From a virus, in the UHGV virus genome UHGV-0175871: a DNA stretch of 33,986 nucleotides. One strand, given 5' to 3'. The translations under genes were made by a program, and so were the position numbers. The notes under the pieces are model-generated. The model made no database searches. It was not told the DNA's origin and saw only the letters and a list, made by a program, of their open reading frames with translations. Shown here one piece after another: positions 2,260 to 33,340 of this stretch; position 1 is the first letter of the stretch, and the number at the start of each line of letters is the position of its first letter.

Positions 2260-3219
2260 ATGAATATTTCCGATATTCGCGCAGGACTGCGCACGCTTGT
2301 AGAAAATGGAGAAACCACGCTGACACGCATCGCCAGTGAATCAGGCGTGGCCCTGAGCACAGTCAGTGGTTTTGTGAATGATAAATATAACGGCAACATG
2401 GAATCAGTCGGGCGCACACTGGAACGCTGGCTGGAAAACTATCATCGCGCAGAAGAACTGCCGGAACCCCCGCGTTTTGTGGAAACTGCAACAGCCCGTC
2501 AAATCTGGACAAGTATGCGTTTTGCTAATCTGACCGGAACCATTGCTGTTATCTGCGGTAATCCAGGAGTGGGTAAAAGCGAAGCAGCCCGTGAATTTTG
2601 TCGCACTAATAATAATGTCTGGATGATCACCATTGCGCCATCCCGTGCCAGTACGCTGGAATGTCTGACTGAACTTGCCGAAGAGTTGGGAATGAATAAT
2701 GCACCATGTCGCAAAGGGCCGCTTTCCCGTAACCTGCGTCGCCGCCTGAAAGGAACGCAGGGACTGGTCATTGTTGACGAAGCTGATCACCTTGACACCG
2801 AAGCGCTGGAAGAGCTCCGTCTGTTACAGGAGTCCGCCTGTATTGGCCTTGTTCTGATGGGGAATCACCGTGTTTATTCAAATATGACCGCTAATGGCGA
2901 CAGAACAATTGAGTTTGCCCGTCTGTTTTCCCGTATTGCAAAGCGCACAGCAATTAATAAAACCAAAGAAGACGATGTAAACGCAATTGCGGATGCCTGG
3001 CAGATTACCGGGAAAAATGAACGGGAATTATTACAGCAGATTGCACAAACGCCTGGTGCGCTCCGCATTATGAATCAAACGCTGCGCCTTGCTGTTATGA
3101 ATGCCTTCGGTAAAGGCGAACGTGTTAATGAGGATTATCTGCGTGAGGCTTACAAAGAGTTAGACCAGGACGTTGATGTTTCGATGCTGCTGGGTGTGCA
3201 AGGGGATGCTGAATCATGA
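2260..3219 (+). CDS. B: MuB, ATP-dependent target DNA activator
   Basis: 319 aa with Walker A motif GNPGVGKS and Walker B-like IVDEAD; positioned directly after A as in Mu. Confidence 0.9.
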
Positions 3220-6096: not shown

Positions 6097-6159
6097 GAAT
6101 CAAATCCTTTAATACGTTCAGGGCGGTGCAGCAACACCGCCTTCATGGAGATACGCATC

Positions 6160-6708
6160 ATGCGCGCATCATTGATTAAATTAATTCATGTCGCCCGTCG
6201 CGATCTACAACTCGACGATGACACTTACCGCGCCTTTCTGGTGCAGTGCACGGGCAAAACCAGTTGCCGCGAGCTGTCCGTTGCACAACTGGAACGGGTG
6301 CTCGATGCCATGAAAGAGCGCGGTTTTAAGAAGCAGAAAAAACATCCCCGCCGTCGCTTTAAGGGGCATGTCACACCGCGCGAGAAGATTTACAAAATCT
6401 GGCAGCAGATGTTCCTTGATGGTTTCGTTTCCGATATCAGCGACGCTGCGCTGGACAAATACGTTGAGCGCCTGACAGCCAGACGTAATGGCGGTCAGGG
6501 TGTTTCCACGCTGGCATGGTGTCACGGGGAATCGTTGCAGGTTGTGCTTGAAACGCTCAAACAGTGGCATATGCGCTGCATCCGTGAAGCCTTTGCCCGA
6601 CATGGTGTGCCTTTACCTGTGAGCGAAACTGGGCGGGAGCTGCGCGGCTATGATGCACTGACCAGTGCGTATGCCCGTGCACGAAACAGCGGGAGAATTG
6701 CTGTATGA
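6160..6708 (+). CDS. gemA: GemA, gene expression modulator
   Basis: MRASLIKLIHVARRDLQLDDDTYRA... matches my recollection of Mu GemA; GGAGA RBS 7 nt before ATG 6160; an in-frame upstream ATG at 6145 is an alternative start. Confidence 0.8.
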   Translation: MRASLIKLIHVARRDLQLDDDTYRAFLVQCTGKTSCRELSVAQLERVLDAMKERGFKKQKKHPRRRFKGHVTPREKIYKIWQQMFLDGFVSDISDAALDKYVERLTARRNGGQGVSTLAWCHGESLQVVLETLKQWHMRCIREAFARHGVPLPVSETGRELRGYDALTSAYARARNSGRIAV

Positions 6709-7154
6709 AACAGATGAAAGAGCAGGATTTATTCGAAGACCTCCGGGACGACAGCGTTCTGGAATATCTTCATGATTACCAGGAAAACACCGCTTATCCG
6801 GCGTTACTTTCTGAACTGAACGCACTGCTGCGTAAAGAGCTGGCCCGGATTGGCGCAGACCCTGCCCATTCCCTTGAGCTGGTTGTGGCGATTTGTCGCC
6901 ATATCGGCGGGATGCAGGTTTATGTTCCGAGGGGGAATATTCTGGAGAATCTTGTCCGGGATATGCGTATCTGGCGTGATTTTAACGGCCATAATATTCC
7001 TGAACTGGTTCAGCGTTACGGGGTGACGTATAAAACCGTCTACAAGGCCATCAAACGGATGCGACGTCTGGAGCGCAATAAATACCAGCCGGATTTGTTT
7101 TACCCCTCCCCGAACCTGCCTCACCCCGTTCGTCGTCCGCCACGACGCCCTTAA
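6705..7154 (+). CDS. mor: Mor, middle-operon transcription activator (Mor/C family)
   Basis: 149 aa; the core LELVVAICRHIGGMQVYVPRG...IWRDFNGHNIPELVQRYGVTYKTVYKAIKRMRR matches Mor; extra proline/arginine-rich C-terminal tail; ATG overlaps the gemA stop (ATGA). Confidence 0.85.
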   Translation: MKQMKEQDLFEDLRDDSVLEYLHDYQENTAYPALLSELNALLRKELARIGADPAHSLELVVAICRHIGGMQVYVPRGNILENLVRDMRIWRDFNGHNIPELVQRYGVTYKTVYKAIKRMRRLERNKYQPDLFYPSPNLPHPVRRPPRRP

Positions 7155-7158
7155 TCAA

Positions 7159-7184
7159 TGAAGCCGGTAAATCCGGCTTTTTTT
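7159..7184 (+). terminator. Rho-independent terminator at the end of the early operon
   Basis: Stem AAGCCGG / loop TAAAT / CCGGCTT followed by seven T, 5 bp after the mor stop. Confidence 0.75.
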
Positions 7185-7199
7185 ATGCCTCCGGCACCA

Positions 7200-7228
7200 T
7201 GAAGCAGACCACGTTTAAATCTGCTTCA
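7200..7228 (+). promoter_or_regulatory. Inverted repeat upstream of the endolysin gene (candidate operator or 5' UTR hairpin)
   Basis: TGAAGCAG-13 nt-CTGCTTCA, ending 12 bp before the ATG at 7240. Confidence 0.35.
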
Positions 7229-7239
7229 CAGGTGCTTTT

Positions 7240-7836
7240 ATGGAAAATCAAAAATTCCCCCCGGCCTTTGAGCATGCGCTGAATTTCATTCTGCGTCCCG
7301 ATATCGAAGGCGTCTATGTCAATGACCCCACTGACCGTGGCGGCGAAACCAAATACGGCATTTCTGACCGCCGCGACGGTGTGATTGACGGCAAAACCGA
7401 TGTCAACGGCGACGGCAAACCGGATACCCGCATTAAGGATTTAACCCGCGAACAGGTCGCGCAGATTTACTGGCGCGATTACTGGCTGCCTGCCGGATGT
7501 GACCAGTGGCCTGATGGCGTGGCGATGTTTGTGTTCGATGCAGCGGTTCAGCATGGCGTTAAAAAAGCCATCAGAATTTTGCAGGAAGCCGCTGATGTGG
7601 ATGCTGACGGCATCATCGGCCCGCGTACCCGTAAGGCCGTGAGTCTGTCCACCCCGGACTGGTTGTTGGCCCGCTGCATTGTCCGTCGTTCCCGCTTTTA
7701 TGCCGACATCATCAAGTCAAAACCCGCCCAGGGTAAATACCTGAACGGCTGGTTTAACCGCATGGAAAAACTGACCGACGCCTGTCTGGAAATCATCGAT
7801 ACCCCTCTGGGCATCATGTCCGCCACGCGGGGGTGA
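7240..7836 (+). CDS. Endolysin, GH108 lysozyme domain plus peptidoglycan-binding domain
   Basis: N-terminal FPPAFEHALNFILRPDIEGVYVNDPTDRGGETKYGIS is the GH108 signature; C-terminal ADGIIGPRTRKAV...YLNGWFNRM resembles PG_binding_3. Confidence 0.85.
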   Translation: MENQKFPPAFEHALNFILRPDIEGVYVNDPTDRGGETKYGISDRRDGVIDGKTDVNGDGKPDTRIKDLTREQVAQIYWRDYWLPAGCDQWPDGVAMFVFDAAVQHGVKKAIRILQEAADVDADGIIGPRTRKAVSLSTPDWLLARCIVRRSRFYADIIKSKPAQGKYLNGWFNRMEKLTDACLEIIDTPLGIMSATRG

Positions 7837-9055: not shown

Positions 9056-9279
9056 CCGACGAAATCGACCGCATCAGTGAAGTGGTTCTGAACGAACGTC
9101 AGAGCGTCGTTAAAGCCTGGCAGACGCGGACAAAAGAAGCGCCCCACAGCCGGGGCTTCTGCAATGACTGCGGGAACGTTATTCCGGCACAGCGCCTTGC
9201 GGCGCTGCCGGATGTGGTGACCTGTATTGACTGTCAGCAGATACGGGAACACAGGAGGAAATCGTGTCCTGGGAAATGA
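9052..9279 (+). CDS. TraR/DksA-family C4 zinc-finger protein
   Basis: 75 aa with CNDCGNVIPAQRLAALPDVVTCIDCQ (CxxC-17-CxxC) typical of phage TraR-like proteins. Confidence 0.7.
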   Translation: MTDEIDRISEVVLNERQSVVKAWQTRTKEAPHSRGFCNDCGNVIPAQRLAALPDVVTCIDCQQIREHRRKSCPGK

Positions 9280-10301: not shown

Positions 10302-10883
10302 ATGGAAAATGAACAACGCCCCACCCGTGGCCGTCTTTCCAAAGTGGATTTACTCCCGGACAGCATCCGGGAGCAGTTGCATCAGATGCTGCGGGAAAAG
10401 CGGCACACGCAGGAGGAAATCCGCGAAGCCATCAACGCCCTGATTGACGAACACAACCTGCCGGAAGAGATGCAGTTAAGCCGGACGGGCTTAAACCGCT
10501 ATGCCATCCGCATGGAAAAAGTCGGGGCAAAAATCCGTGCCTCCCGCGAAATGGCCGAAGTCTGGGCGGCAAAGCTGGGTTCCGCGCCGACGTCAGACGT
10601 CGGCAAACTGCTGATGGAGTTTGTAAAAACGCTGGCTTTTGAAACGTCCATGTCGATGGCAGAAGACGACAAGCCTGTTGCACCGAAGGCGCTGGGGCAA
10701 CTGGCGCTGGTTGCCCAGCGTCTGGAAGCGGCAGCCATGACCAGCCATAAACGCGAGAAAGCGATCCGTGATGCGTTTGCGCAGGAGATGGCAGAGAAAA
10801 CCGAAGAACTGGTCAGAACGGGCGGTCTGTCAGGTGGTGCGGCTGACACCATCAAACGAGACATTCTGGGGATTAGCGTATGA
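10302..10883 (+). CDS. Terminase small subunit-like DNA-binding protein (DUF3486-like)
   Basis: 193 aa from ATG 10302 with GGAGGG RBS; N-terminus RGRLSKVDLLPDSIREQLHQMLRE; directly precedes and overlaps the large terminase gene. Confidence 0.65.
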   Translation: MENEQRPTRGRLSKVDLLPDSIREQLHQMLREKRHTQEEIREAINALIDEHNLPEEMQLSRTGLNRYAIRMEKVGAKIRASREMAEVWAAKLGSAPTSDVGKLLMEFVKTLAFETSMSMAEDDKPVAPKALGQLALVAQRLEAAAMTSHKREKAIRDAFAQEMAEKTEELVRTGGLSGGAADTIKRDILGISV

Positions 10884-12415
10884 CACAAATGGATACGTTC
10901 AGTGAATATGATGTTCTGCTGCCGTATCAGAAACGCTGGGTGGCGGATGATGCCGACCTGAAAATTGCCGAGAAATCCCGCCGTACCGGTTTAACCTGGG
11001 CGGAAGCGGCGGATGCAGCACTGACGGCATCACTGAAGAAGGAAGACGGCGGGCGCGATCACTTTTATATCGGTTCGAATAAGGAGATGGCCCGCGAATT
11101 TATCGACGCCGTGGCGATGTGGGCGAAGGCGTTTAATGCGGCAGCGGAAGAAATCTGCGAGGAAGTGATCACCGACGAAGACAAGGACATTCTGACGTTC
11201 GTCGTGTACTTCGCCAGCGGTTTTAAGGTCAAGGCACTGTCCAGCAACCCGAGCAACATTCGCGGGATGCAGGGGAATGTCACCATCGACGAGGCCGCGT
11301 TCCATGAAAAACTGGACGAGCTGCTGAAGGCGGTGCTGCCGCTGAAAACATGGGGCGGCAAAATTCGCCTTATTTCCACCCATGACGGCGTGGACAACCT
11401 GTTTAACCAGCTGATTCAGGAAAGCCGCGCGGGCAAAAAAGATTACAGCATTCACACCATCACGCTGGATGACGCCTGCAATGACGGGCTGTACCGGCGT
11501 ATCTGTCAGGTGCGCGGCATGGTGTGGTCACCGGAAGCCGAAGCGGAATGGAAAGAAGGTCTGCTGCGAAATACCGCCACCCGCGAAGACGCACTGGAAG
11601 AATATTACTGCGTCCCGAAAAACGGCGGCGGCACGTATATCCCCCGCTCACTGCGTGAACGTGCGGCCCGTGGCACCGGGAAAGTGTTGCGCTTTACCGG
11701 CACACCGGAATTTAACGCACTGACGGAAAGCCAGCGCCGGGCAGATATCCGGGAATGGCTGGAAACAGTGGTGCGCCCTGAACTGGAAAAACTCCCGAAG
11801 AACCTGCGCCACTGTCTGGGGGAAGACTTTGCGCGTTCGGGTGACCTGACCGTACTGGCCCCGGTGACGGTGAACGATGACACCACCCGCGAGGTGCCGT
11901 TCCTGGTTGAGCTTGGCAATGTGCCGTTTAAACAGCAGGAGCAGGTGCTGTTCTGGCTTTGCGATCGTCTGCCCCGTCGTGACGGCATCAAAATGGATGC
12001 GCGGGGGAATGGTCAGTATCTGGCAGAACAGGCGGCGGAGCGGTACGGCGACGAAGTGGAACAGGTGATGCTGTCCGTGGCGTTCTACCGCGAAAACATG
12101 CCCCGTTTCCGTGCGGCGTTTGAAGATGATGAGCTGATCCTTCCGAAGCATGAAGACGTGATCAATGACCTCGGGGCCATTCAGTTACTGCGTGGCGTTC
12201 CCGGCATTGATGATTCACGAACCAGAGGCAGCGACGGTCACAAACGTCACGGCGACGCCGCTGTGGCCATTTTCCTGGGCTTCCTTGCCAGTAAAGATGA
12301 CTGCCACCGTTACGAACTGCACCGCCTGAACCGCCCGGCGAAACCGGAAGAACGCAACGCGCGCCGCCAGATGAAGCTGACGCGCGGCCTGAAAAATGAG
12401 GGAGGTTTACTGTGA
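10880..12415 (+). CDS. Terminase large subunit
   Basis: 511 aa; Mu gp28-like; position upstream of portal; acidic nuclease-like motifs. Confidence 0.8.
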   Translation: MTQMDTFSEYDVLLPYQKRWVADDADLKIAEKSRRTGLTWAEAADAALTASLKKEDGGRDHFYIGSNKEMAREFIDAVAMWAKAFNAAAEEICEEVITDEDKDILTFVVYFASGFKVKALSSNPSNIRGMQGNVTIDEAAFHEKLDELLKAVLPLKTWGGKIRLISTHDGVDNLFNQLIQESRAGKKDYSIHTITLDDACNDGLYRRICQVRGMVWSPEAEAEWKEGLLRNTATREDALEEYYCVPKNGGGTYIPRSLRERAARGTGKVLRFTGTPEFNALTESQRRADIREWLETVVRPELEKLPKNLRHCLGEDFARSGDLTVLAPVTVNDDTTREVPFLVELGNVPFKQQEQVLFWLCDRLPRRDGIKMDARGNGQYLAEQAAERYGDEVEQVMLSVAFYRENMPRFRAAFEDDELILPKHEDVINDLGAIQLLRGVPGIDDSRTRGSDGHKRHGDAAVAIFLGFLASKDDCHRYELHRLNRPAKPEERNARRQMKLTRGLKNEGGLL

Positions 12416-13983
12416 ACCTGAAACAACTGGCCGGGGCCGTTCGCCGTCTGCTGAACCCGGCAACCGGTGAGGAAGACACGCTGAAAAAAGAGGCGCTCAA
12501 CGAAGCACAGGCCCGTCCGCGTCATGCCGGTGTGCGTTCGGCCTCGCCGGGTATCAGCGTCGCCTCCGGGCTGAACCCCGGCAGGCTGGCAGGCATTCTG
12601 CGCAATGCCGCCGACGGCATCACGCGTGATTTTTTTATCCTTGCTGAAGAGATGGAAGAGCGCGATTTGCATTACGCCTCGGTGCTGCGCACCCGCAAGC
12701 TGACGGTGGCGGGTATCGAACCGGTGGTGGTGGCCGCCAGTGATGACGATGCTGACGTGCAACTGGCGGACGCCATCCGTGCGCTGATGGAAGCCCCGCA
12801 AATCCCTGAGCTGATGTTTGATTTGCTCGACGGGCTGGGAAAAGGCGTGGCGGTCTGTGAAATCCTGTGGGACACCCGCAACAACCACTGGATGCCCCGT
12901 GATTATGAGTGGGTTGATCCCCGTTTTCTGAAAGCCGAAAAACCCACGCTGCGCCAGTTCCGCCTGCTGACTGACGATGAACCGGTGGATGGCGTATCGC
13001 TGACACCGGGAAAATTCATTGTTCACCAGCCGCGTCTGAAATCCGGTCTGCCGCTGCGTAACGGTCTGGCCCGTCTGGTAGCGGTGATGTACATGCTGAA
13101 ATCCTTTACCGTGCGTGACTGGTGGGCATTTGCGGAAAAGTTCGGCATTCCGGTCACGGTGGGGAAATACGGTCCCAACGCCACGGAGGAGCAAATCCGC
13201 GTACTGATTGATGCGATTGCGTCCATTGCCTCGGATGCCGGGTGTGCAATTCCGCAGTCCATGCAACTGGAGATGCAGGAAACCGCCAGCCGGAATAACG
13301 GCGGTGCACTGTTCTGTGAAATGGCGGAATGGTGCGATGCGCAAATCAGTAAGGCTGTGCTGGGGCAGACCATGACCACGGATAACGGCAGTTCGCGTTC
13401 ACAGGCGGACGTGCACAATCAGGTGCGTATGGACATTGTGCGCTGGGACGCGCGGCAGCTGGCTAACACGCTGAATGAATATCTGGTGCGTCCCTATATC
13501 GAGGCCAACTACGGGCCACAGGCGCAATACCCCCGTGTTGTTCTGCGTATCAGTGAAGCGGAAGATCTGAAGGCGCTGACAGATGCTCTGGTGCCACTGA
13601 TTGACCGGGGGATGCGGGTTCAGGAATCGGAGCTGCGGGACCGGTTCGGCCTGGCTGAACCGGACGACGGGGCTGATGTTCTGCATCCGGTGTCTGCCGG
13701 AATGTCAGGTGATGTGGCGATGAACCGCGAGCGCGTCGCCCTGAACCGGGAACACCCCGACGAACTGGCACAGATGGTGGATGATGCCCTGCGTGACTGG
13801 CAGAAAACCGGCGAAGCGTTCACGAACCCGGTGCTGACACTGGCGCAGGAATGCGACAGTTTTGATGACTTTCTGAAACGCCTGCCTGAGCTTCAGGAAA
13901 CGCTGAACGCGGACGACTTTGCCCTGCAACTGGCGGAGGTGTGCTTTAAGGCGCGTGCGCTGGGGGACACCGGTCATGCGTGA
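12412..13983 (+). CDS. Portal protein (Mu gp29/H-like, DUF935)
   Basis: 523 aa, start overlaps the terminase stop; conserved position between terminase and F. Confidence 0.8.
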   Translation: MNLKQLAGAVRRLLNPATGEEDTLKKEALNEAQARPRHAGVRSASPGISVASGLNPGRLAGILRNAADGITRDFFILAEEMEERDLHYASVLRTRKLTVAGIEPVVVAASDDDADVQLADAIRALMEAPQIPELMFDLLDGLGKGVAVCEILWDTRNNHWMPRDYEWVDPRFLKAEKPTLRQFRLLTDDEPVDGVSLTPGKFIVHQPRLKSGLPLRNGLARLVAVMYMLKSFTVRDWWAFAEKFGIPVTVGKYGPNATEEQIRVLIDAIASIASDAGCAIPQSMQLEMQETASRNNGGALFCEMAEWCDAQISKAVLGQTMTTDNGSSRSQADVHNQVRMDIVRWDARQLANTLNEYLVRPYIEANYGPQAQYPRVVLRISEAEDLKALTDALVPLIDRGMRVQESELRDRFGLAEPDDGADVLHPVSAGMSGDVAMNRERVALNREHPDELAQMVDDALRDWQKTGEAFTNPVLTLAQECDSFDDFLKRLPELQETLNADDFALQLAEVCFKARALGDTGHA

Positions 13984-14740
13984 AACTCTCATCCCGAAAG
14001 AGGCGCTGGCGTGGCTGAAGGCGAAGAAGCTGCGCCCCGGTTTTGATTACCGGGATGTATGGCGGGAAGAACACCGGAACAGCTTCACCGTGGCAAAAAT
14101 GCTGCAACTGGATTTGTTGTCGGATGTGAAAGTCCTTGTGGAAGACGCCCTGCAAAGCGGACAGACGTTCAGCGAGTTCCGGGAGGCGCTGCAACCGCTG
14201 CTGATAAAACGCGGATGGTGGGGTGTTCAGGAGATGGATGATCCGCTGACGGGCGAAACCCGAACCGTACAGCTGGGCAGCGACCGCCGCCTCCGCACGA
14301 TTTTTGACACCAACATGCGCACTGCCCGCGCGGCGGGCCAGTGGGAACGCATTCAGCGAACAAAGCGGGCCATGCCGTATCTGATTTACGAGCTGGGGCC
14401 ATCCCGCGAGCACCGGGCGGAGCATGTGAAATGGGCGCGTCTGTGTCTGCCGGTAGATCATCCGTTCTGGCAGACACATTTTGCCCCTAACGGCTGGGGC
14501 TGCAAATGCACCATCCGTCAGGTCAGCCGTGGTGAGTATGCGCAACTGGCGGCACAGGGCACCATTCACACCGAAGCGCCGGAAATCAGAACCGTCCGCT
14601 GGGTGAATAAACGCACGGGCGAAGAGGAAGACGTGCCGGAAGGGATTGATCCGGGCTGGAACTACAACCCCGGCATAAACCGTGAGCAGGAGCTGGCACG
14701 CCAGCTGGCAGCCAGACAGGCACGTTTTGACAGTGAATAA
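13976..14740 (+). CDS. F: Head morphogenesis protein, Mu F-like
   Basis: 254 aa from ATG 13976 (MRETLIPKEALAWLK...); contains a Mu-F/SPP1 gp7-type motif ...HFAPNGWGCKCTIRQV. Confidence 0.75.
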   Translation: MRETLIPKEALAWLKAKKLRPGFDYRDVWREEHRNSFTVAKMLQLDLLSDVKVLVEDALQSGQTFSEFREALQPLLIKRGWWGVQEMDDPLTGETRTVQLGSDRRLRTIFDTNMRTARAAGQWERIQRTKRAMPYLIYELGPSREHRAEHVKWARLCLPVDHPFWQTHFAPNGWGCKCTIRQVSRGEYAQLAAQGTIHTEAPEIRTVRWVNKRTGEEEDVPEGIDPGWNYNPGINREQELARQLAARQARFDSE

Positions 14741-14768
14741 CCCTCCCGCCGTAAATCCCCCTGAAACG

Positions 14769-14796
14769 CATCAGAAACGCGTTTTTTATTCTGATG
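14769..14796 (+). promoter_or_regulatory. Inverted repeat in the F-I non-coding region
   Basis: CATCAGAA-ACGCGTTTTTTA-TTCTGATG, 8-bp arms. Confidence 0.4.
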
Positions 14797-14818
14797 GCGT
14801 GAATGTGCATTCTGACTT

Positions 14819-14858
14819 TTTTGAAGGTGCTGTGGCGTTTTTGAAGGGGTTTTGAAGG
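14819..14858 (+). repeat. Three direct copies of TTTTGAAGG (candidate protein-binding array)
   Basis: Copies at 14819, 14839 and 14850; spacing 20 and 11 bp, roughly two and one helical turns. Confidence 0.5.
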
Positions 14859-14879
14859 GGGGGTTCTTCCCGTTTTCAG

Positions 14880-14905
14880 TGAAGCCGGTAAATCCGGCTT
14901 TTTTT
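14880..14905 (+). terminator. Rho-independent terminator, exact 26-nt copy of the one at 7159
   Basis: TGAAGCCGGTAAATCCGGCTTTTTTT identical to 7159-7184; lies between F and I. Confidence 0.7.
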
Positions 14906-14954
14906 CTGCCTTCCGCATACTGACCGTCGGTAACCCCAGACGACGGAGACTGAC

Positions 14955-15917
14955 ATGAAACCGGAACTGCTGGCGCTGTGTTTTTCCCTGCCAGAACCCA
15001 TCCCTGAGCTGACACCTGCTCAACTGCCGGAATGGCTTGAACTCGTTCCTGCGGGTGAGTTCACCGGGCGCGATGGCCGGACGTGGATTAACCGCAATCC
15101 GCATGAGGTGGTTGCCCGTTCGTCCGACATCAAAATTCCGGTGGACATTGAACACGCCACCGAAATTAAAGGGCAACGCGGTGATGAAGCCCCGGCGTAT
15201 GGCTGGGTGGAAGAACTGCGGGTGACAGACAGCGGCACCATTGAAGGCCGTGTTGTCTGGAGCGAATACGCCCGGTGGATGCTGAGCGAGCGCCGCTACC
15301 GCTATTACAGCCCGGCGTTTTTCCATGACGCGGAGGGTGTGGTGACGCGCCTGTCCAGCGTCGGGCTGACCAACAAACCTAATCTGGACTTTCCTGCACT
15401 GAATACGGAGAAAAACCCGATGACAGTACCTGTGCAAATCACCGGCCTGCTTGGGCTGGCTGAATCTGCCACGGTGGACGATACCGTGGCCGCCATTAAA
15501 CAACTTCAGGAGAACGAACAGGTGGCGCTGAACCGCGCACAGACACCTGACCTGACGAAGTTTGTACCGGTGGAAACCCACAATCTGGCACTGAACCGTG
15601 CCGAAACCGCAGAACAACGCCTTCAGCAACTGGAAGAGAAGGAAGCAGAAGCGCTTGTGGATGCGGCCATCGAAGCCGGAAAAGTGGCCCCGGCAAACCG
15701 TGACATGTTCCTTGCCACCTGCCGCACGGAAGAAGGCCGCAAACAGTTTGCGGAGTACACCAAAGGTGCACAGCCGCTGGTGAACAACGACAAGCCCAGC
15801 CAGGGCAAGGATAAACCCGCGCAGACACTGACCGACGCCGAACTGGCGATGTGCCGCAGCATGGGTATTACCGGGGAAGAGTTCCTCGCCGCTAAACCTA
15901 AACAGGAGAATAACTGA
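14955..15917 (+). CDS. I: Head maturation protease/scaffold, Mu I-like
   Basis: 320 aa; immediately upstream of the major capsid gene; coiled-coil scaffold-like C-terminal half. Confidence 0.7.
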   Translation: MKPELLALCFSLPEPIPELTPAQLPEWLELVPAGEFTGRDGRTWINRNPHEVVARSSDIKIPVDIEHATEIKGQRGDEAPAYGWVEELRVTDSGTIEGRVVWSEYARWMLSERRYRYYSPAFFHDAEGVVTRLSSVGLTNKPNLDFPALNTEKNPMTVPVQITGLLGLAESATVDDTVAAIKQLQENEQVALNRAQTPDLTKFVPVETHNLALNRAETAEQRLQQLEEKEAEALVDAAIEAGKVAPANRDMFLATCRTEEGRKQFAEYTKGAQPLVNNDKPSQGKDKPAQTLTDAELAMCRSMGITGEEFLAAKPKQENN

Positions 15918-16819
15918 TGGGAGCAGTCACTTCCGAAGTCCTTCACGCGCTGACCACCTGTCTGAGCGCCGCTTATACCCGTGGTCTGAGTGGTGTCACC
16001 CCACAGTGGCAGCGCATCGCCTCTGAAATCCCGAGTTCGTCCGCCTCCAATACCTACGGCTGGATGAAAGATTTACCGGAGATTAAGGAATGGGTCAGCG
16101 CCCGTCAGATGGCAACGCTGGACGGTTATGGTTACACCCTTGCGAACAAAACCTGGGAAAGTTCGATCCGCGTTAAACGCGAACACATTGAAGACGATCA
16201 GATTGGTCAGTACAGCATTATCGCTGAACGCTATGGCCGCCAGACGTCGGAGTTCCCGGACAAGCTGTGTTACCCCCTGCTGTGTGCCGGGTTTAACACC
16301 CTGTGTTTTGACGGTCAGAACTTCTTTGATGAAGACCACCCGCTGGGCGACGGCACCTGCAGCAACGTTGTCGGCACCCCGGCATCAGACCAGGGGGAAC
16401 CGTGGTTTCTGATTGATGATTCTCAGGTACTGAAACCCATCATCTGGCAGACGCGACGCGCCTTTAAGTTTGAAGCCCTGGATGATCTGAACAGCGAGCA
16501 TACCTTCAAGAATAACGAGTTCCTTTACGGGGTGGACGGTCGCTGCAATGCGGGCTTCGGCTTCTGGCAGACCGCCGTCGGTTCCCGTGCGGCACTGACA
16601 GCGGAGAACTACGAGAAGGCCAGCAATCTGCTGCTGGGTATGAAGACCACCAACGGTGAACCGCTGGGCATCCGCCCGACCACCCTTGTGGTGGGGCAGA
16701 AAAACCGTGCAGCCGCGAAGCGCATCATTGACGCCATGCTGGTTAACGGCGGCGATTCCAACATCTGGTACAAGGATGTGGACATCGTGGTCAGTCCGTT
16801 CATCACCACCCCGGCATAA
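15917..16819 (+). CDS. T: Major capsid protein, Mu T-like
   Basis: 300 aa; position after protease/scaffold; followed by a strong hairpin. Confidence 0.8.
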   Translation: MGAVTSEVLHALTTCLSAAYTRGLSGVTPQWQRIASEIPSSSASNTYGWMKDLPEIKEWVSARQMATLDGYGYTLANKTWESSIRVKREHIEDDQIGQYSIIAERYGRQTSEFPDKLCYPLLCAGFNTLCFDGQNFFDEDHPLGDGTCSNVVGTPASDQGEPWFLIDDSQVLKPIIWQTRRAFKFEALDDLNSEHTFKNNEFLYGVDGRCNAGFGFWQTAVGSRAALTAENYEKASNLLLGMKTTNGEPLGIRPTTLVVGQKNRAAAKRIIDAMLVNGGDSNIWYKDVDIVVSPFITTPA

Positions 16820-28862: not shown

Positions 28863-29393
28863 ATGGAACTCAGAAACGTCACGCGTTATTACCCGGAAGA
28901 GATGCCTTATGGTGAAAACATTCAGTATTTCCGCAGTGAAGACGGACAGGATTTTTATGAATCACTGGATAAATTCACGAAGAAATACAAATTGTGTATT
29001 CACCCGGAAACCGGCGTGATTTATTCAATGGCGGAAGACGTGTCCCGTCTTTATCCGGCTGGCTTCACCATTGTGGAAGTGGATGAACTGCCGGAAGGTT
29101 TTGGCATTGAAGCCTGCTGGTATTACAAAGACGGCGAAGTGCTGCCGGTTCCTGTTGATTATTCGCAACTGGCAGAAAAACAACGCCAGAGCCTGCTGAA
29201 TGAAGCGAAGGACATCACCTCCGACTGGAAAACCGAGCTGGAGCTGGGCACCATCAGCGACGATGATAAAGCGCGTCTTACGCAGTGGATGGCATATATC
29301 AAAGCGGTAAAGGCTCTGGATTTAAGCACCGTTACTGACGAAGCCTCCTTTTACTCCATCAACTGGCCGGAGCGTCCCGATGCCGCAGCTTAA
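28863..29393 (+). CDS. Tail fibre assembly chaperone (Mu U / lambda Tfa family)
   Basis: 176 aa from ATG 28863 with AAGGAG RBS; C-terminal ...DDDKARLTQWMAYIKAVKALDLS typical of Tfa proteins. Confidence 0.7.
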   Translation: MELRNVTRYYPEEMPYGENIQYFRSEDGQDFYESLDKFTKKYKLCIHPETGVIYSMAEDVSRLYPAGFTIVEVDELPEGFGIEACWYYKDGEVLPVPVDYSQLAEKQRQSLLNEAKDITSDWKTELELGTISDDDKARLTQWMAYIKAVKALDLSTVTDEASFYSINWPERPDAAA

Positions 29394-32300
29394 AGGTGTG
29401 ATTAAAACGCCCACGGGAGAACCGCTGGGTGGCGCAACCATTACACTGACCTCCCTGCACAACCGTGCAGGGATTCTGAAAAGTGTTTTCAGCCATGTCA
29501 CCACACAGAACGGGGAATATGACTTCACCGTTCTGCCGGGTGTGTACAGCGTTCGCCTGACACAAAGCACACAGCGCCTTTCAGAAATCGGTGTCATCCG
29601 CGTTTATGAAGATTCAGCGGACGGTTCGCTGAATGATTTTCTGGGCGCAACCGATATTGACCTGCGCCCGGAAGCCCTGAAGAAATTCGAAGAGCTGGCG
29701 CAACAGGCGCAGCAAAGCGCAGAAAAAGCAGGAGAGCACGCCACCGCTGCTGAACAGGCCCGCCAGGATACAGAAGCGCTCGCCGGGGAAATACAGCAGG
29801 ATGCAGAAGAAATCGCGGGTAATGTGCAGAAAGCTGAAGAGCTGGCCTCTGAGACCAACCAGAATGCCGCCCGGGCAGAACAGGCGGTCAAAGATGCCGA
29901 TAAGATAGTCCAGAAAGCGGTCGATAAACTTGCTGATGCCGCAACGCTGACCGGTGAGGCAAAAGCCAGCGCCGAAGCGGCAGCAAAAAGCGAGCAGAGC
30001 GCGAAACAGCACAGGGACGAGGCGCAACGGATAGTTGATGACCTGAAGGGAACCAACGCCAGCACGACGCAAAAAGGCCTGGTGCAACTCTGTAGTGATA
30101 CAGACAACGACAGCGAAGAACTGGCCGCCACACCAAAAGCCGTCAAAACCGTCATGGACGAGACGAAAACAAAAGCGCCACTGGACAGCCCGGCATTCAT
30201 CGGCACGCCCACCACACCAACCCCGCCGGACGATGCGACCGGGCTGGAGATGGCGAACGCGGCATTTGTTCGCAAACTGCTTGCTGCGCTGGTTGACTCG
30301 TCACCGGAAGCCCTGGACACACTGAACGAGCTGGCAGCGGCGCTGGGCAATGACCCGGAGTTTGCGACAACAATCTTGAACGCGCTGGCGGGTAAACAAC
30401 CACTCAGTGACGTGTTAACCGCAATCAGTAATCTGGAAGAACGGGCAGATAATCTTCTGTGCTTTAATCATGACGGAAATGCTTCATTGTCTCCGCTGTC
30501 AGAAAAAGCCCGGTCACTGCTGGCACAGGCCACAGCGGAAGCCATGCGCAATGAGCTTGAGCTGAAAAGCGCAGCGGTAAGGGATATTCAGATAGACCTT
30601 TACGACAGCATGGAAGGCCGTGTTGCGCTTCCCGGTGCGTATGGTTACGGAATGACGGACGCCGGAGCACGTTCAATTATTGCCAGCGATATGGCGACTG
30701 TAGCCAGAACCGCTCACAACCTGCACCCGGGACGGTATTACACCTTTTCCACACAAACGGAAAAAACAACCGGAATAACAGAAATTATCTGGCTGGATAA
30801 TGGCCGGGGCGACAAAACCAGTCAGACAGCAACAAAGCTGGTTCTGTTCTTTGGAAAAGACGGACGGATTCTTATGACCGTTCGTGGCGATAATATCTCC
30901 GCCCCGGTCACCTGGACGAATCTGACGCCACAACTGGGCAATGCAGCACAAAAGGATGCGCAGGAGAGTATTTACGACCGCACCGAAGGCCGTCTGGCGG
31001 TTCCTGGCATGTTCGGATTCGGGAAAATATTTTCCAGCGGCGACAGGACCGAGTTTAAAACAGAGGCCGATTTTCTCCGCTGGGTAAAAACGGCAAAACC
31101 CGGACGCTATGCCGTTTATGCAGATACAAATGCGGTAATACAGGGCGTGCTGTTCAAGGGTACCGTTGAAATTATCTGGCCGGAACCTCAAACCAACCCC
31201 AATCCGGCATGTGTGGCTAAAATCATTATTTTTTACGGTATTAACGGCCACATTTATTACAATCGCTACTGGACTACCGGAGATGGTTATCTGGTTGGCT
31301 GGGAAAACCTGAAAGTCAACGAGGTTTCACTCCGGGCACTGATTGAAACCCGTGCGCCACTGAACAGTCCGACACTGACCGGAACGCCGTCCACGCCAAC
31401 ACCACCAGATGATGCAGCAGGTAATGAAATAGCCAATGCGGCGTTTGTCCGCAAACTGCTTGCTGCACTGGTTGACTCGTCACCGGAAGCCCTGGACACG
31501 CTGAACGAGCTGGCAGCGGCGCTGGGTAATGACCCGAACTTTGCGACGACAATCATGAACGCGCTGGCCGGTAAACAACCGCTGAACGATGTGCTGACGG
31601 CTATCAGTGAACTGACGCAACGGGCAGATAATCTTCTGTGCTTTAATCAGGACGGGAATGCTTCACTGTCTCCACTGTCAGAAAAAGCCCGGCTGCTGCT
31701 TGCTCAGACTACAGCGGAAGACATGCTGTCTGTTCTTGAGTTGCAAAAGAATACGTACAGCGCCCAGAGTGATATTTATGACCGGGCGGAAGATAAACTG
31801 GCTCTTCCTGGTGCATTCGGATTTGGTTATCCGTTTGGAAAAGAAGACCAGCTCACCTTTAAAAACACATCGGAGCTGACCACGTGGGTAACAAACGCTT
31901 ATCCGGGACGTTATGCGGTAACCGTCCCTAATCAGGGAACAATCATACCTGGTGTTTATTTTACGGGTATTCTTGATGTTATCTGGCAGATGAACCAGTA
32001 CGAAACAAAGCCCCCGTCAGATGCTGCAAAATGCATAATGTTTTATGCAGGAAACGGTGATATCTGGTTTAACCGATATATTTACGGGCGTCTTGTTGGC
32101 TGGGAGCGAATAAAGATATCCACAGCCGATATTTATAATGTTATGGGGGGGACCATCAGCAATGAGTGGGGAGACCCTGATGTTGGTGGACTGATTATTG
32201 CTGCATACCAGGGAACGACTGACGGAGATACAAAAATCAAGCTTGTGAGAGGGCAATATTACGCAGGCTCACGGCTGGGGCCGGTGGGAATTTCAGCGCC

Positions 32301-32454
32301 CTACAATCCAGCCGGAACGTATTCATCAAGCCCGCAATTCTACGTTATGGGAAATGCAGGTCATTCATTACCGGGTACATATCGCGCCCTGTCCGGGGTA
32401 ACAAACACCTATGGTTCCGACGCGATGATTGGGCTTTTTATTCGCACAGCGTGA
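29380..32454 (+). CDS. Side tail fibre protein, lambda Stf-like, with internal tandem duplication
   Basis: 1024 aa; N-terminal ...IGVIRVYEDSADGSLNDFL; Ala/Glu/Gln-rich coiled shaft; conserved TQKGLVQLCS...LAATPKAVKTVMDETKTKAPLDSPA...LDTLNELAAALGNDPEFATT..NALAGKQP block occurring twice. Confidence 0.85.
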   Translation: MPQLKGVIKTPTGEPLGGATITLTSLHNRAGILKSVFSHVTTQNGEYDFTVLPGVYSVRLTQSTQRLSEIGVIRVYEDSADGSLNDFLGATDIDLRPEALKKFEELAQQAQQSAEKAGEHATAAEQARQDTEALAGEIQQDAEEIAGNVQKAEELASETNQNAARAEQAVKDADKIVQKAVDKLADAATLTGEAKASAEAAAKSEQSAKQHRDEAQRIVDDLKGTNASTTQKGLVQLCSDTDNDSEELAATPKAVKTVMDETKTKAPLDSPAFIGTPTTPTPPDDATGLEMANAAFVRKLLAALVDSSPEALDTLNELAAALGNDPEFATTILNALAGKQPLSDVLTAISNLEERADNLLCFNHDGNASLSPLSEKARSLLAQATAEAMRNELELKSAAVRDIQIDLYDSMEGRVALPGAYGYGMTDAGARSIIASDMATVARTAHNLHPGRYYTFSTQTEKTTGITEIIWLDNGRGDKTSQTATKLVLFFGKDGRILMTVRGDNISAPVTWTNLTPQLGNAAQKDAQESIYDRTEGRLAVPGMFGFGKIFSSGDRTEFKTEADFLRWVKTAKPGRYAVYADTNAVIQGVLFKGTVEIIWPEPQTNPNPACVAKIIIFYGINGHIYYNRYWTTGDGYLVGWENLKVNEVSLRALIETRAPLNSPTLTGTPSTPTPPDDAAGNEIANAAFVRKLLAALVDSSPEALDTLNELAAALGNDPNFATTIMNALAGKQPLNDVLTAISELTQRADNLLCFNQDGNASLSPLSEKARLLLAQTTAEDMLSVLELQKNTYSAQSDIYDRAEDKLALPGAFGFGYPFGKEDQLTFKNTSELTTWVTNAYPGRYAVTVPNQGTIIPGVYFTGILDVIWQMNQYETKPPSDAAKCIMFYAGNGDIWFNRYIYGRLVGWERIKISTADIYNVMGGTISNEWGDPDVGGLIIAAYQGTTDGDTKIKLVRGQYYAGSRLGPVGISAPYNPAGTYSSSPQFYVMGNAGHSLPGTYRALSGVTNTYGSDAMIGLFIRTA
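30175..30546 (+). repeat. Copy 1 of the ~372-bp direct repeat inside the tail fibre gene
   Basis: Aligns in frame with 31354..31725, about 80-90% identity by eye, with perfect blocks of 26-32 bp. Confidence 0.85.
31354..31725 (+). repeat. Copy 2 of the ~372-bp direct repeat inside the tail fibre gene
   Basis: See copy 1; offset 1179 bp (393 codons). Confidence 0.85.
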
Positions 32455-33031
32455 GGAATGCATCGTGGAAATCAAAGAAATCATTAATCCCCGCTATACA
32501 GAAAATAGCGCTGTAGACTGTGACGTTTGGTTTGACGGCCAGCCGCAGCCAGTCCCTTACACTGCCACTCCTGATGATACATCAACAATCGGTAAGCGCA
32601 TCTGGCAGGAACTGCAAAGCGGCAAATGGGGCGAAATCGCCCCGTTCACCATCACGCCGGAGCTTATCGCAGCGGCAAAAGATGCCAAAAAGATGGAAAT
32701 CGAGGCGTGGCGCACAGAACAGGAAGCGCAGCCGTTCACGTTCGAATGGAACGGTCGCACCTGGAACGCTGGCCCCGACTCACTGGCCCGTCTTTATCCT
32801 GTGGTAATGGCGGCGAAATCTGACACAGCGCGGGACGTGATGACGTGGGGTGACGCCGATAATCAACAGGTGAAACTGTCAATGCCGGAACTGGAAGAAC
32901 TGGCGACAGCAATGGCGCAGGCACAGGTCGATCGCAATGACGGGATTTATCAGCGCCAGCGTGAAATGAAGGAGCAGCTTTCCCGGCTGTCCATACTGGA
33001 CGAGGTGAGAGCGTTAACTGTCGGTGATTAA
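32429..33031 (+). CDS. Putative tail fibre assembly chaperone, second module
   Basis: About 190-200 aa; likely GTG start at 32465 after GAGGAA (the track start is a TTG overlapping the fibre gene); assignment by position after the fibre gene. Confidence 0.45.
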   Translation: MGFLFAQREECIVEIKEIINPRYTENSAVDCDVWFDGQPQPVPYTATPDDTSTIGKRIWQELQSGKWGEIAPFTITPELIAAAKDAKKMEIEAWRTEQEAQPFTFEWNGRTWNAGPDSLARLYPVVMAAKSDTARDVMTWGDADNQQVKLSMPELEELATAMAQAQVDRNDGIYQRQREMKEQLSRLSILDEVRALTVGD

Positions 33032-33053
33032 ATAATCAGTATGTATAGTTTAT

Positions 33054-33081
33054 GACGATCGATAACATCATATCGATCGTC
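33054..33081 (+). promoter_or_regulatory. GATC-containing inverted repeat upstream of com-mom (candidate Dam-methylation-sensitive operator)
   Basis: GACGATCGATA-ACATCA-TATCGATCGTC: 11-bp arms each with a GATC, about 75 bp upstream of com. Confidence 0.55.
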
Positions 33082-33154
33082 GGTTTGCATCAATTGTGAT
33101 TAAATACCCCCAGCCCTCCGGGCGCTCATGTCTGGTTATTACACAGGGGGAATC

Positions 33155-33340
33155 ATGGACTCTGTTCGCTGTAAAAACTGCAATAAATTACTGTTTAAAG
33201 GAGGTTTTAAGCATATAGAAATTAAATGCCCTCGCTGTAAACGTTACATTGTCATATCGAATGCCAAAGAGCATCCCACGGAGCTGTATTGTGGGAAAAG
33301 AGAAGAAATCACGCATTCTGACAAAACCCTGCGTTATTGA
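33155..33340 (+). CDS. com: Com, zinc-finger translational activator of mom
   Basis: 61 aa from ATG 33155 after AGGGGG; [10 protein letters not shown]...[13 protein letters not shown]...[22 protein letters not shown] matches Mu Com. Confidence 0.8.

Follow-up and report, generated by a model that had tools for sequence, protein, structure and literature searches.

The stretch of DNA analysed here (33,986 nucleotides, referred to throughout as the window) is a Mu-like prophage in which every gene lies on the + strand. Transposase A (164-2221), B (2260-3219) and GemA (6145-6708) precede a gene encoding a Mor-family transcription activator (6705-7154; Pfam Mor, E=3.6e-30; PHROG 'late transcriptional activator'). 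The next gene, lys (7240-7836), encodes a GH108 endolysin and is the first gene of the lysis/packaging operon; terminase (10880-12415), portal (12412-13983) and F (13919-14740) lie downstream. The head/tail operon begins with I (14955-15917; head protease/scaffold) and continues with T (15917-16819), after which come the tail and baseplate genes. Towards the end of the window, a 300-nt direct repeat with 83% identity (30175-30474 versus 31354-31653) is contained within a 1024-aa ORF (29380-32454) that is probably a tail fibre gene. The com and mom genes (33155-33340 and 33249 onward, respectively) form an operon in the region 33031-33340, with GATC sites upstream at 33057-33060 and 33075-33078.

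The window Mor protein shares 63% amino acid identity with Mu Mor and 32% with Mu C, and its helix-turn-helix is near-identical to that of Mu Mor (TVYKAI[R/K]RMRRL), including the recognition helix region. A tblastn search with Mu Mor and Mu C found no second Mor/C-family gene in the window. There is likewise one Mor/C-family gene per genome in the annotated E. coli relatives and in Klebsiella phage Kp4866-3, and there are two in Mu, D108, SfMu and some Yersinia phages. Both of the beta-clamp-binding motifs proposed for the Mor/C family (PMC12867686) are present in the window protein (N-terminal QDLF and C-terminal QPDLF), which also has a C-terminal extension (…QPDLFYPSPNLPHPVRRPPRRP; 7100-7158).

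An exact 26-nt repeat at two operon boundaries

An exact-match search of the window found two copies of the 26-mer TGAAGCCGGTAAATCCGGCTTTTTTT, both on the + strand, one at 7159-7184 (copy 1) and the other at 14880-14905 (copy 2). This bears out the first-pass annotation, which had reported an identical 26-nt terminator in the intervals between genes at two operon boundaries; copy 1 does lie between mor and lys, and copy 2 between F and I. No third copy was found in the window at up to 3 mismatches, and there were no matches in 100 dinucleotide-preserving shuffles (0/100). The repeat extends beyond the 26-mer, with 86% identity over 49 nt (7148-7196 versus 14869-14917). Copy 1 is separated by 4 nt from the stop of the Mor-family gene and by 55 nt from the lys ATG (7240); for copy 2, the distances are 139 nt from the F stop and 49 nt to the I ATG (14955). 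The distances to the downstream ATG are therefore alike and those to the upstream stop are not, indicating that spacing is constant relative to the downstream gene. The possibility that the repeat is a mobile or repeated element was considered and rejected: the exact 25-mer was found in IMG/VR on 96 stretches, nearly all of them contigs of ~20-40 kb, and many of these are relatives of this prophage that had already been retrieved.

Each copy has the shape of an intrinsic terminator, with an 8-pair stem (5 G-C), a 5-nt loop and a run of seven T residues (T7), and a hairpin energy of -12.6 kcal/mol. Homologous hairpins are annotated in Mu and D108, in both cases as predictions: the Mu record places a terminator at 9179-9200, within the annotated Pm promoter (9163-9233), and a second terminator, after C, that overlaps Plys, and the D108 record labels the equivalent post-mor hairpin as a rho-independent terminator. 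A terminator that overlaps an activator site is thus already a feature of Mu. Beyond this database annotation, the Mu early transcript presumably ends at the post-mor hairpin, a terminator that we take to be the one named t9.2.

Inverted repeats adjoin both copies, as the first-pass annotation had noted. Downstream of copy 1, a repeat with 9-bp arms (7200-7208 and 7220-7228) spans the predicted transcription start (see below) and ends beside the lys Shine-Dalgarno sequence. At copy 2, a repeat with 8-bp arms (14769-14776 and 14789-14796) is located upstream, directly after F, and a repeat with 6-bp arms (14924-14929 and 14941-14946) is located downstream, its right arm overlapping the I Shine-Dalgarno sequence (GGAG, 14945-14948). 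A second terminator-like hairpin (14857-14878; GGGGGGGTTCTTCCC then GTTTTCAG) is present directly upstream of copy 2, roughly where the Mu record has a predicted terminator before PI. The F-I intergenic region as a whole (14741-14879) aligns with the Mu G-I interval, which has an annotated strong gyrase cut site. It contains three direct repeats (14820-14827, 14840-14847 and 14851-14858) that read TTTGAAGG here; in Mu and in other genera the reading is TTTAAACG or TTTGAACG. The three copies have changed in concert.

Mor-type sites and predicted promoters

The 26-mer is identical to phage Mu Pm (TAAAGCCGGTTAATCCGGCTTTTTTT) at 24/26 positions, the two differences being with the Mu sequence 3′ of mor, cAGTAAAGCCGGTTAATCCGGCTTTTTTTacgtcctcaaTATCCTgtgatgaA. 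In Mu Pm, which has no -35 hexamer, the Mor dyad occupies positions -51 to -36 and is centred at -43.5 (PMC4287176, PMC4390567). Taking the +1 implied by the published Pm numbering, the Mu Mor site is AGTAAAGCCGGTTAAT; as a check on this numbering, position -57 is G, matching the published statement. The -10 hexamer of Mu Pm is TATCCT, 10 nt past the T7 tract. Counterparts of the Mu Mor site are found at both copies of the 26-mer, whose left half is GAAGCCGG. The 16-bp site of the lys promoter, AATGAAGCCGGTAAAT (7157-7172, + strand), matches AGTAAAGCCGGTTAAT at 13/16 positions, and that of the I promoter, AGTGAAGCCGGTAAAT (14878-14893, + strand), matches it at 14/16. With a position weight matrix (PWM) built from 16-mers, these sites score 26.8 and 26.6, respectively, relative to a maximum of 18.5 in 100 shuffles. 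Each 26-mer thus comprises the 3′ 14 nt of the Mor-type site, the right hairpin arm and the T7 tract.

A -10-like hexamer is present 10 nt past the T-run at both loci, as in Mu Pm: CACCAT at the lys promoter (7195-7200, + strand) and CATACT at the I promoter (14916-14921, + strand), the latter aligning with CAAACT of Mu PI. In each case there are 22 nt between the Mor-type site and the -10 hexamer, again as in Mu Pm, and by homology the transcription starts are predicted to lie near 7208 (lys) and near 14929 (I). CACCAT and CATACT are weak -10 hexamers. No -35 hexamer is present, the corresponding position reading CCGGCT, and neither locus gave a call for a sigma-70 two-hexamer site. In relatives the -10 hexamer reads CAnnnT or TAAATT; A in second place and T in sixth place are retained, and the distance is constant to within ~1 nt. 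The arms of the window Mor-type sites (AATGA or AGTGA versus TAAAT) are less symmetrical than those of the Mor dyad in the literature, AGTAA-N6-TTAAT. No Rfam family had a match in the window.

Over its downstream half, the -10 hexamer included, the I promoter aligns with the PI promoter annotated in Mu; in its upstream half, Mu PI has a C-type site in place of the Mor-type site. The C consensus is TTAT-N5-6-ATAA (PMC12867686), and no such sequence was found upstream of lys, I or com-mom. Neither a C site upstream of lys, I and mom nor a C homologue was found in the window, and in these respects it differs from Mu with its C-dependent late promoters. A Mor-type site upstream of com-mom was also not found at a PWM score above 8.

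A third Mor-type site, AGGGAAAACGGTAAAT (25783-25798, + strand; PWM 19.4, best of 100 shuffles 18.5), is located within the gp45 homologue, with gp46 beginning 165 nt further on, and is followed by a -10-like TATTAT (25822-25827, + strand). It has no hairpin, no T-run and no right arm. A site at the same position is present in Kp4866-3, in E. coli prophages and in ~40 distinct IMG/VR relatives. Across these the central amino acid differs, yet the degenerate codon positions of the site (GGG, GT[A/T], AAT) do not, which points to constraint on the DNA itself. By analogy with the Mu promoter PP inside N, the third site is probably an intragenic late promoter. The best-supported reading of the 16-mer, which is common to all three sites, is that it is a predicted Mor operator. 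In D108, which has C, there is one strong Mor-type site, at Pm (PWM 23.7; next best 12.5).

From this combination of homology to Mu Pm, promoter geometry and conservation, we consider it very probable that the two copies of the 26-mer are the upstream halves of Mor-dependent, Pm-type promoters fused to an intrinsic terminator. Of the interpretations offered by the first-pass annotation, that of a shared regulatory cassette was right, the common part most likely being a Mor activator site together with the upstream half of a Mor-dependent promoter. Its description of the repeat as a terminator stands as far as the shape and the annotation of the Mu and D108 hairpins go, and the hairpin and T7 run most likely do also terminate upstream transcription, but the element appears to be more than a reused terminator.

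Comparison across relatives and alternative explanations

Loci were compared from other Enterobacterales genomes (10), IMG/VR (60), E. coli prophages (3) and phage Kp4866-3. Of 5,426 complete E. coli genomes, 58 contain a near-identical prophage, those of E. coli STEC388 and KFu019 being ~99% identical over the mor-lys region, and the group is also present in Klebsiella, Raoultella, Serratia, Kluyvera, Brenneria and Pluralibacter. Megablast of both regions against phage records returned only a short lysozyme match, or none, and phage relatives were found by protein-level search. Most relatives, other E. coli prophages included, carry a variable cargo ORF between mor and lys, and the element keeps a distance of ~50-65 nt before lys despite it. 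The cargo ORF of the other E. coli prophages (159-165 aa; for example 4322-4801 in L016) is missing from the window, where homology to these prophages resumes at ~7151. The window looks like a deletion variant for this ORF, and it is because the ORF is absent that the element appears directly after mor.

The two loci differ in how the element is conserved. At lys, the hairpin and T7 run are invariant and the site is present in 72/72 loci, with only 4 variants of the 26-mer, in which nothing but position 1 and a single loop base varies. At I, 21 variants were found among 66 loci; the 16-mer is retained, the T7 run is present in 28/66, and degradation of the right arm is frequent (CCACTTTCTTCT and CTACTTTCTTCT being examples). 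In relatives without the T-run, residual pairing at I amounted to 85.7% of cells, compared with 81.1% in shuffles, and there were two compensatory pairs; this residual hairpin potential is not predicted by a pure model of a Mor site plus an optional terminator. Covariation of the loop base (TAAAT versus TTAAT) between lys and I, which would have hinted at co-evolution with Mor, was considered and rejected: the first 10 genomes agreed, but the larger set contained discordant loci (L043, L044, L054, L055, L057 and others).

Two classes of I-promoter allele were found. The first resembles the lys promoter of its own genome from the Mor site to the -10 hexamer (~45-50 nt) and has an 18-nt gap after CCGG; the second is unlike the lys promoter and has a 19-nt gap. 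In a neighbour-joining tree of the I gene, built on 700 nt, the classes are interleaved, with L008 carrying the lys-like allele and its close relatives L010 and L071 not, and the L064 allele is a chimera, its left arm being that of one class and its right arm that of the other. The interleaving speaks for repeated short-patch conversion, with lys as donor and I as recipient, and such conversion is the probable cause of the exact identity at I. The gene conversion raised by the first-pass annotation is accordingly plausible; alternatively, an ancestral terminator may have decayed repeatedly, or alleles may have been exchanged between phages. We put at slightly below even the chance that identity of the right half at I (hairpin arm, T7 and part of the spacer) is functionless and is simply the trace of a recent conversion or recombination from the lys promoter. 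The allele classes with their different gaps to the -10, their interleaving on the tree and the chimeric allele all fit this explanation, as does the agreement of every lys-like clade with its own lys loop variant (A or T), the discordance being in the other class. The lys-like allele could, however, be ancestral and selected for terminator function where the lys-F operon ends, and all sampled E. coli prophages of this type retain it exactly; moreover, phage genomes are mosaic, and exchange between phages could mimic conversion on a tree of this length. This explanation concerns only the cause of the identity and is compatible with the copies being parts of Mor-dependent promoters.

The remaining explanations bear on function. 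The hairpins agree with a canonical Rho-independent terminator in their G+C-rich stem of 7-8 bp, 5-nt loop and U7, in an orientation that agrees with all flanking genes and, at lys, in their place at the end of the early operon; the homologous hairpins of Mu and D108 are annotated as terminators. They differ from a canonical terminator in that the same DNA is predicted to serve also as an activator site in the -35 region of a promoter, and in that the terminator features at I are not conserved across relatives. The shape, the orientation and the Mu and D108 annotations speak for two plain terminators reused at two operon ends, with no part in initiation. That account is nonetheless improbable, since the position of each copy is constant with respect to the next gene and its -10 and not to the upstream stop, and since at I the left half is retained in relatives and the T-run lost in 38/66 loci. 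The left half alone is also conserved as a third copy inside a gene, and it is the counterpart of the experimentally defined Mu Mor site. Slightly better placed, yet still unlikely, is a role for the dyad itself, either as an RNA-level signal for 3′-end stabilisation or processing or as a DNA palindrome bound symmetrically, for example by a Mor tetramer. Part of the hairpin potential is retained at I without a U-tract, with compensatory pairs GAAGGCGG/CCGCCTTT and GAAACCGG/CCGGTTTT, and Mor and C have been reported from cryo-EM to bind as tetramers, spanning almost three turns of the helix. Of the 21 distinct I variants, however, 10 have lost pair 7-17, the intragenic site lacks any right arm, and quasi-palindrome-templated mutation could yield compensatory changes without selection. 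The anti-termination target proposed by the first-pass annotation, in which a nut-, qut- or put-like element would let late transcription read through, found no support and is the least credible of these explanations, with hardly any probability left to it. It draws only on the fact that two terminator-shaped sequences separate consecutive co-oriented operons; a promoter-like -10 at Pm spacing precedes each of the downstream operons, the homologous promoter of Mu is activated by polymerase recruitment (PMC4287176), general annotation of the window and of related E. coli prophages suggested no antiterminator, and the Rfam search gave no match in the window.

Predicted regulatory cascade and its relation to Mu

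In the proposed mechanism, Mor made from the early operon would bind the 16-bp sites, each formed by the left 14 nt of the 26-mer and the 2 nt upstream, and would recruit sigma-70 RNA polymerase. The remainder of the 26-mer would complete the G+C-rich hairpin and the T7 run, and would be followed by the G+C-rich 10-nt spacer and the weak -10 of a promoter with no -35. Mor-dependent transcription would start near 7208 for the lys operon and near 14929 for the I operon, promoter activity at both loci would depend on Mor and on GAAGCCGGTAAAT, and the third site inside gp45, with a start predicted at ~25835, would probably boost the baseplate and tail genes. As Mor would start the lys and I operons directly, this amounts to a two-step cascade (early, Mor, late) in place of the three steps of Mu (early, Mor, C, late). 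RNA arriving from upstream would fold into the hairpin with its U7 tract, ending transcription, and at the lys copy this would keep early transcription out of the lysis genes; the absolute conservation of the hairpin and T7 before lys fits a need for such shielding. Before I, the terminator role appears to be dispensable, the operon upstream of I being itself late. Identity of the two copies would come from short-patch gene conversion from the lys to the I promoter, on top of the common need for a Mor site.

The inverted repeats downstream of the two copies may add a translational layer. Both have a left arm that follows the -10 and precedes the predicted start, and a right arm that overlaps or adjoins the Shine-Dalgarno sequence. 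Repeats of this layout, differing in sequence, were found in 18/18 lys variants, in 12/12 I variants, and in Mu Pm and Mu PI. With the left arm upstream of the predicted start, only read-through RNA could form the hairpin. RNAalifold on a MAFFT alignment found no consensus structure for the lys leaders, because the stems differ in sequence and length, and leaders were folded one by one instead. The window lys read-through RNA (7185-7260) folded at -22.8 kcal/mol (z = -4.0) with the Shine-Dalgarno sequence paired, and RNA started at the predicted 7208 folded at -5.7 kcal/mol (z = -0.1). The Shine-Dalgarno sequence was more open in promoter-initiated RNA for 12/12 I leaders and 14/18 lys leaders. 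A comparable gate is known for the lysozyme gene e of T4, whose ribosome-binding site is masked in early read-through transcripts, while RNA from the late promoter begins within the stem (PMC3014915). The window repeats resemble it in reaching the Shine-Dalgarno sequence and in having the left arm upstream of the predicted start; unlike the T4 gate, that of the window is purely predicted, and the computed difference in unpaired Shine-Dalgarno between read-through and promoter-initiated RNA is clear for I (0.18 versus 0.68) and modest for lys (0.45 versus 0.56). From the folding and from this analogy, the downstream inverted repeats may mask the ribosome-binding site in read-through RNA only.

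By homology, the element belongs to the known Mu Pm promoter/terminator module, here predicted to be used three times in a Mor-only cascade. Mu Pm shares with it the T7 tract, the 10-nt G+C-rich spacer, the weak -10, the lack of a -35 and the hairpin at the end of the early operon, as well as an orthologous activator. The Mu late promoters occupy the same genomic positions at lys and I, and Mu Plys is likewise overlapped by a terminator that comes after the activator gene. Mu also has a late promoter inside a structural gene. The differences are that Mu and D108 have one such site, driving a middle operon that ends in C, whereas in the window three sites would drive lys, I and the baseplate block directly, with no C gene and no middle operon; that the activator sites of the window late promoters are of the Mor type and not the C type; and that the intragenic promoter lies in a different gene (gp45 here, N in Mu). 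The Mor site of this clade and the C site of Mu PI, at otherwise homologous promoters, suggest that activator sites have been swapped.

A broader proposal, which we regard as tentative and somewhat doubtful, is that Mu-like phages, Mu included, share a conserved three-layer insulation of the lysis and structural operons, made up of an intrinsic terminator, an activator-only promoter with its operator within the terminator DNA, and an RBS-hiding stem formed only on read-through RNA, with the promoter starting inside that stem; in this clade the upstream half would have been copied repeatedly from lys to I by short-patch conversion. None of these results overturns current understanding, and an eye-catching exact repeat is explained as ordinary phage regulatory logic. 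The analysis raises the idea that inverted repeats after Mor- and C-dependent promoters gate translation, and offers natural variants of the Mor site and its surroundings to Mu specialists. It also provides a usable annotation for Mu-like prophages of a widespread group, with three predicted Mor-dependent late promoters in a two-step cascade without C, and it describes a compact DNA segment predicted both to end early transcription and to start late transcription.
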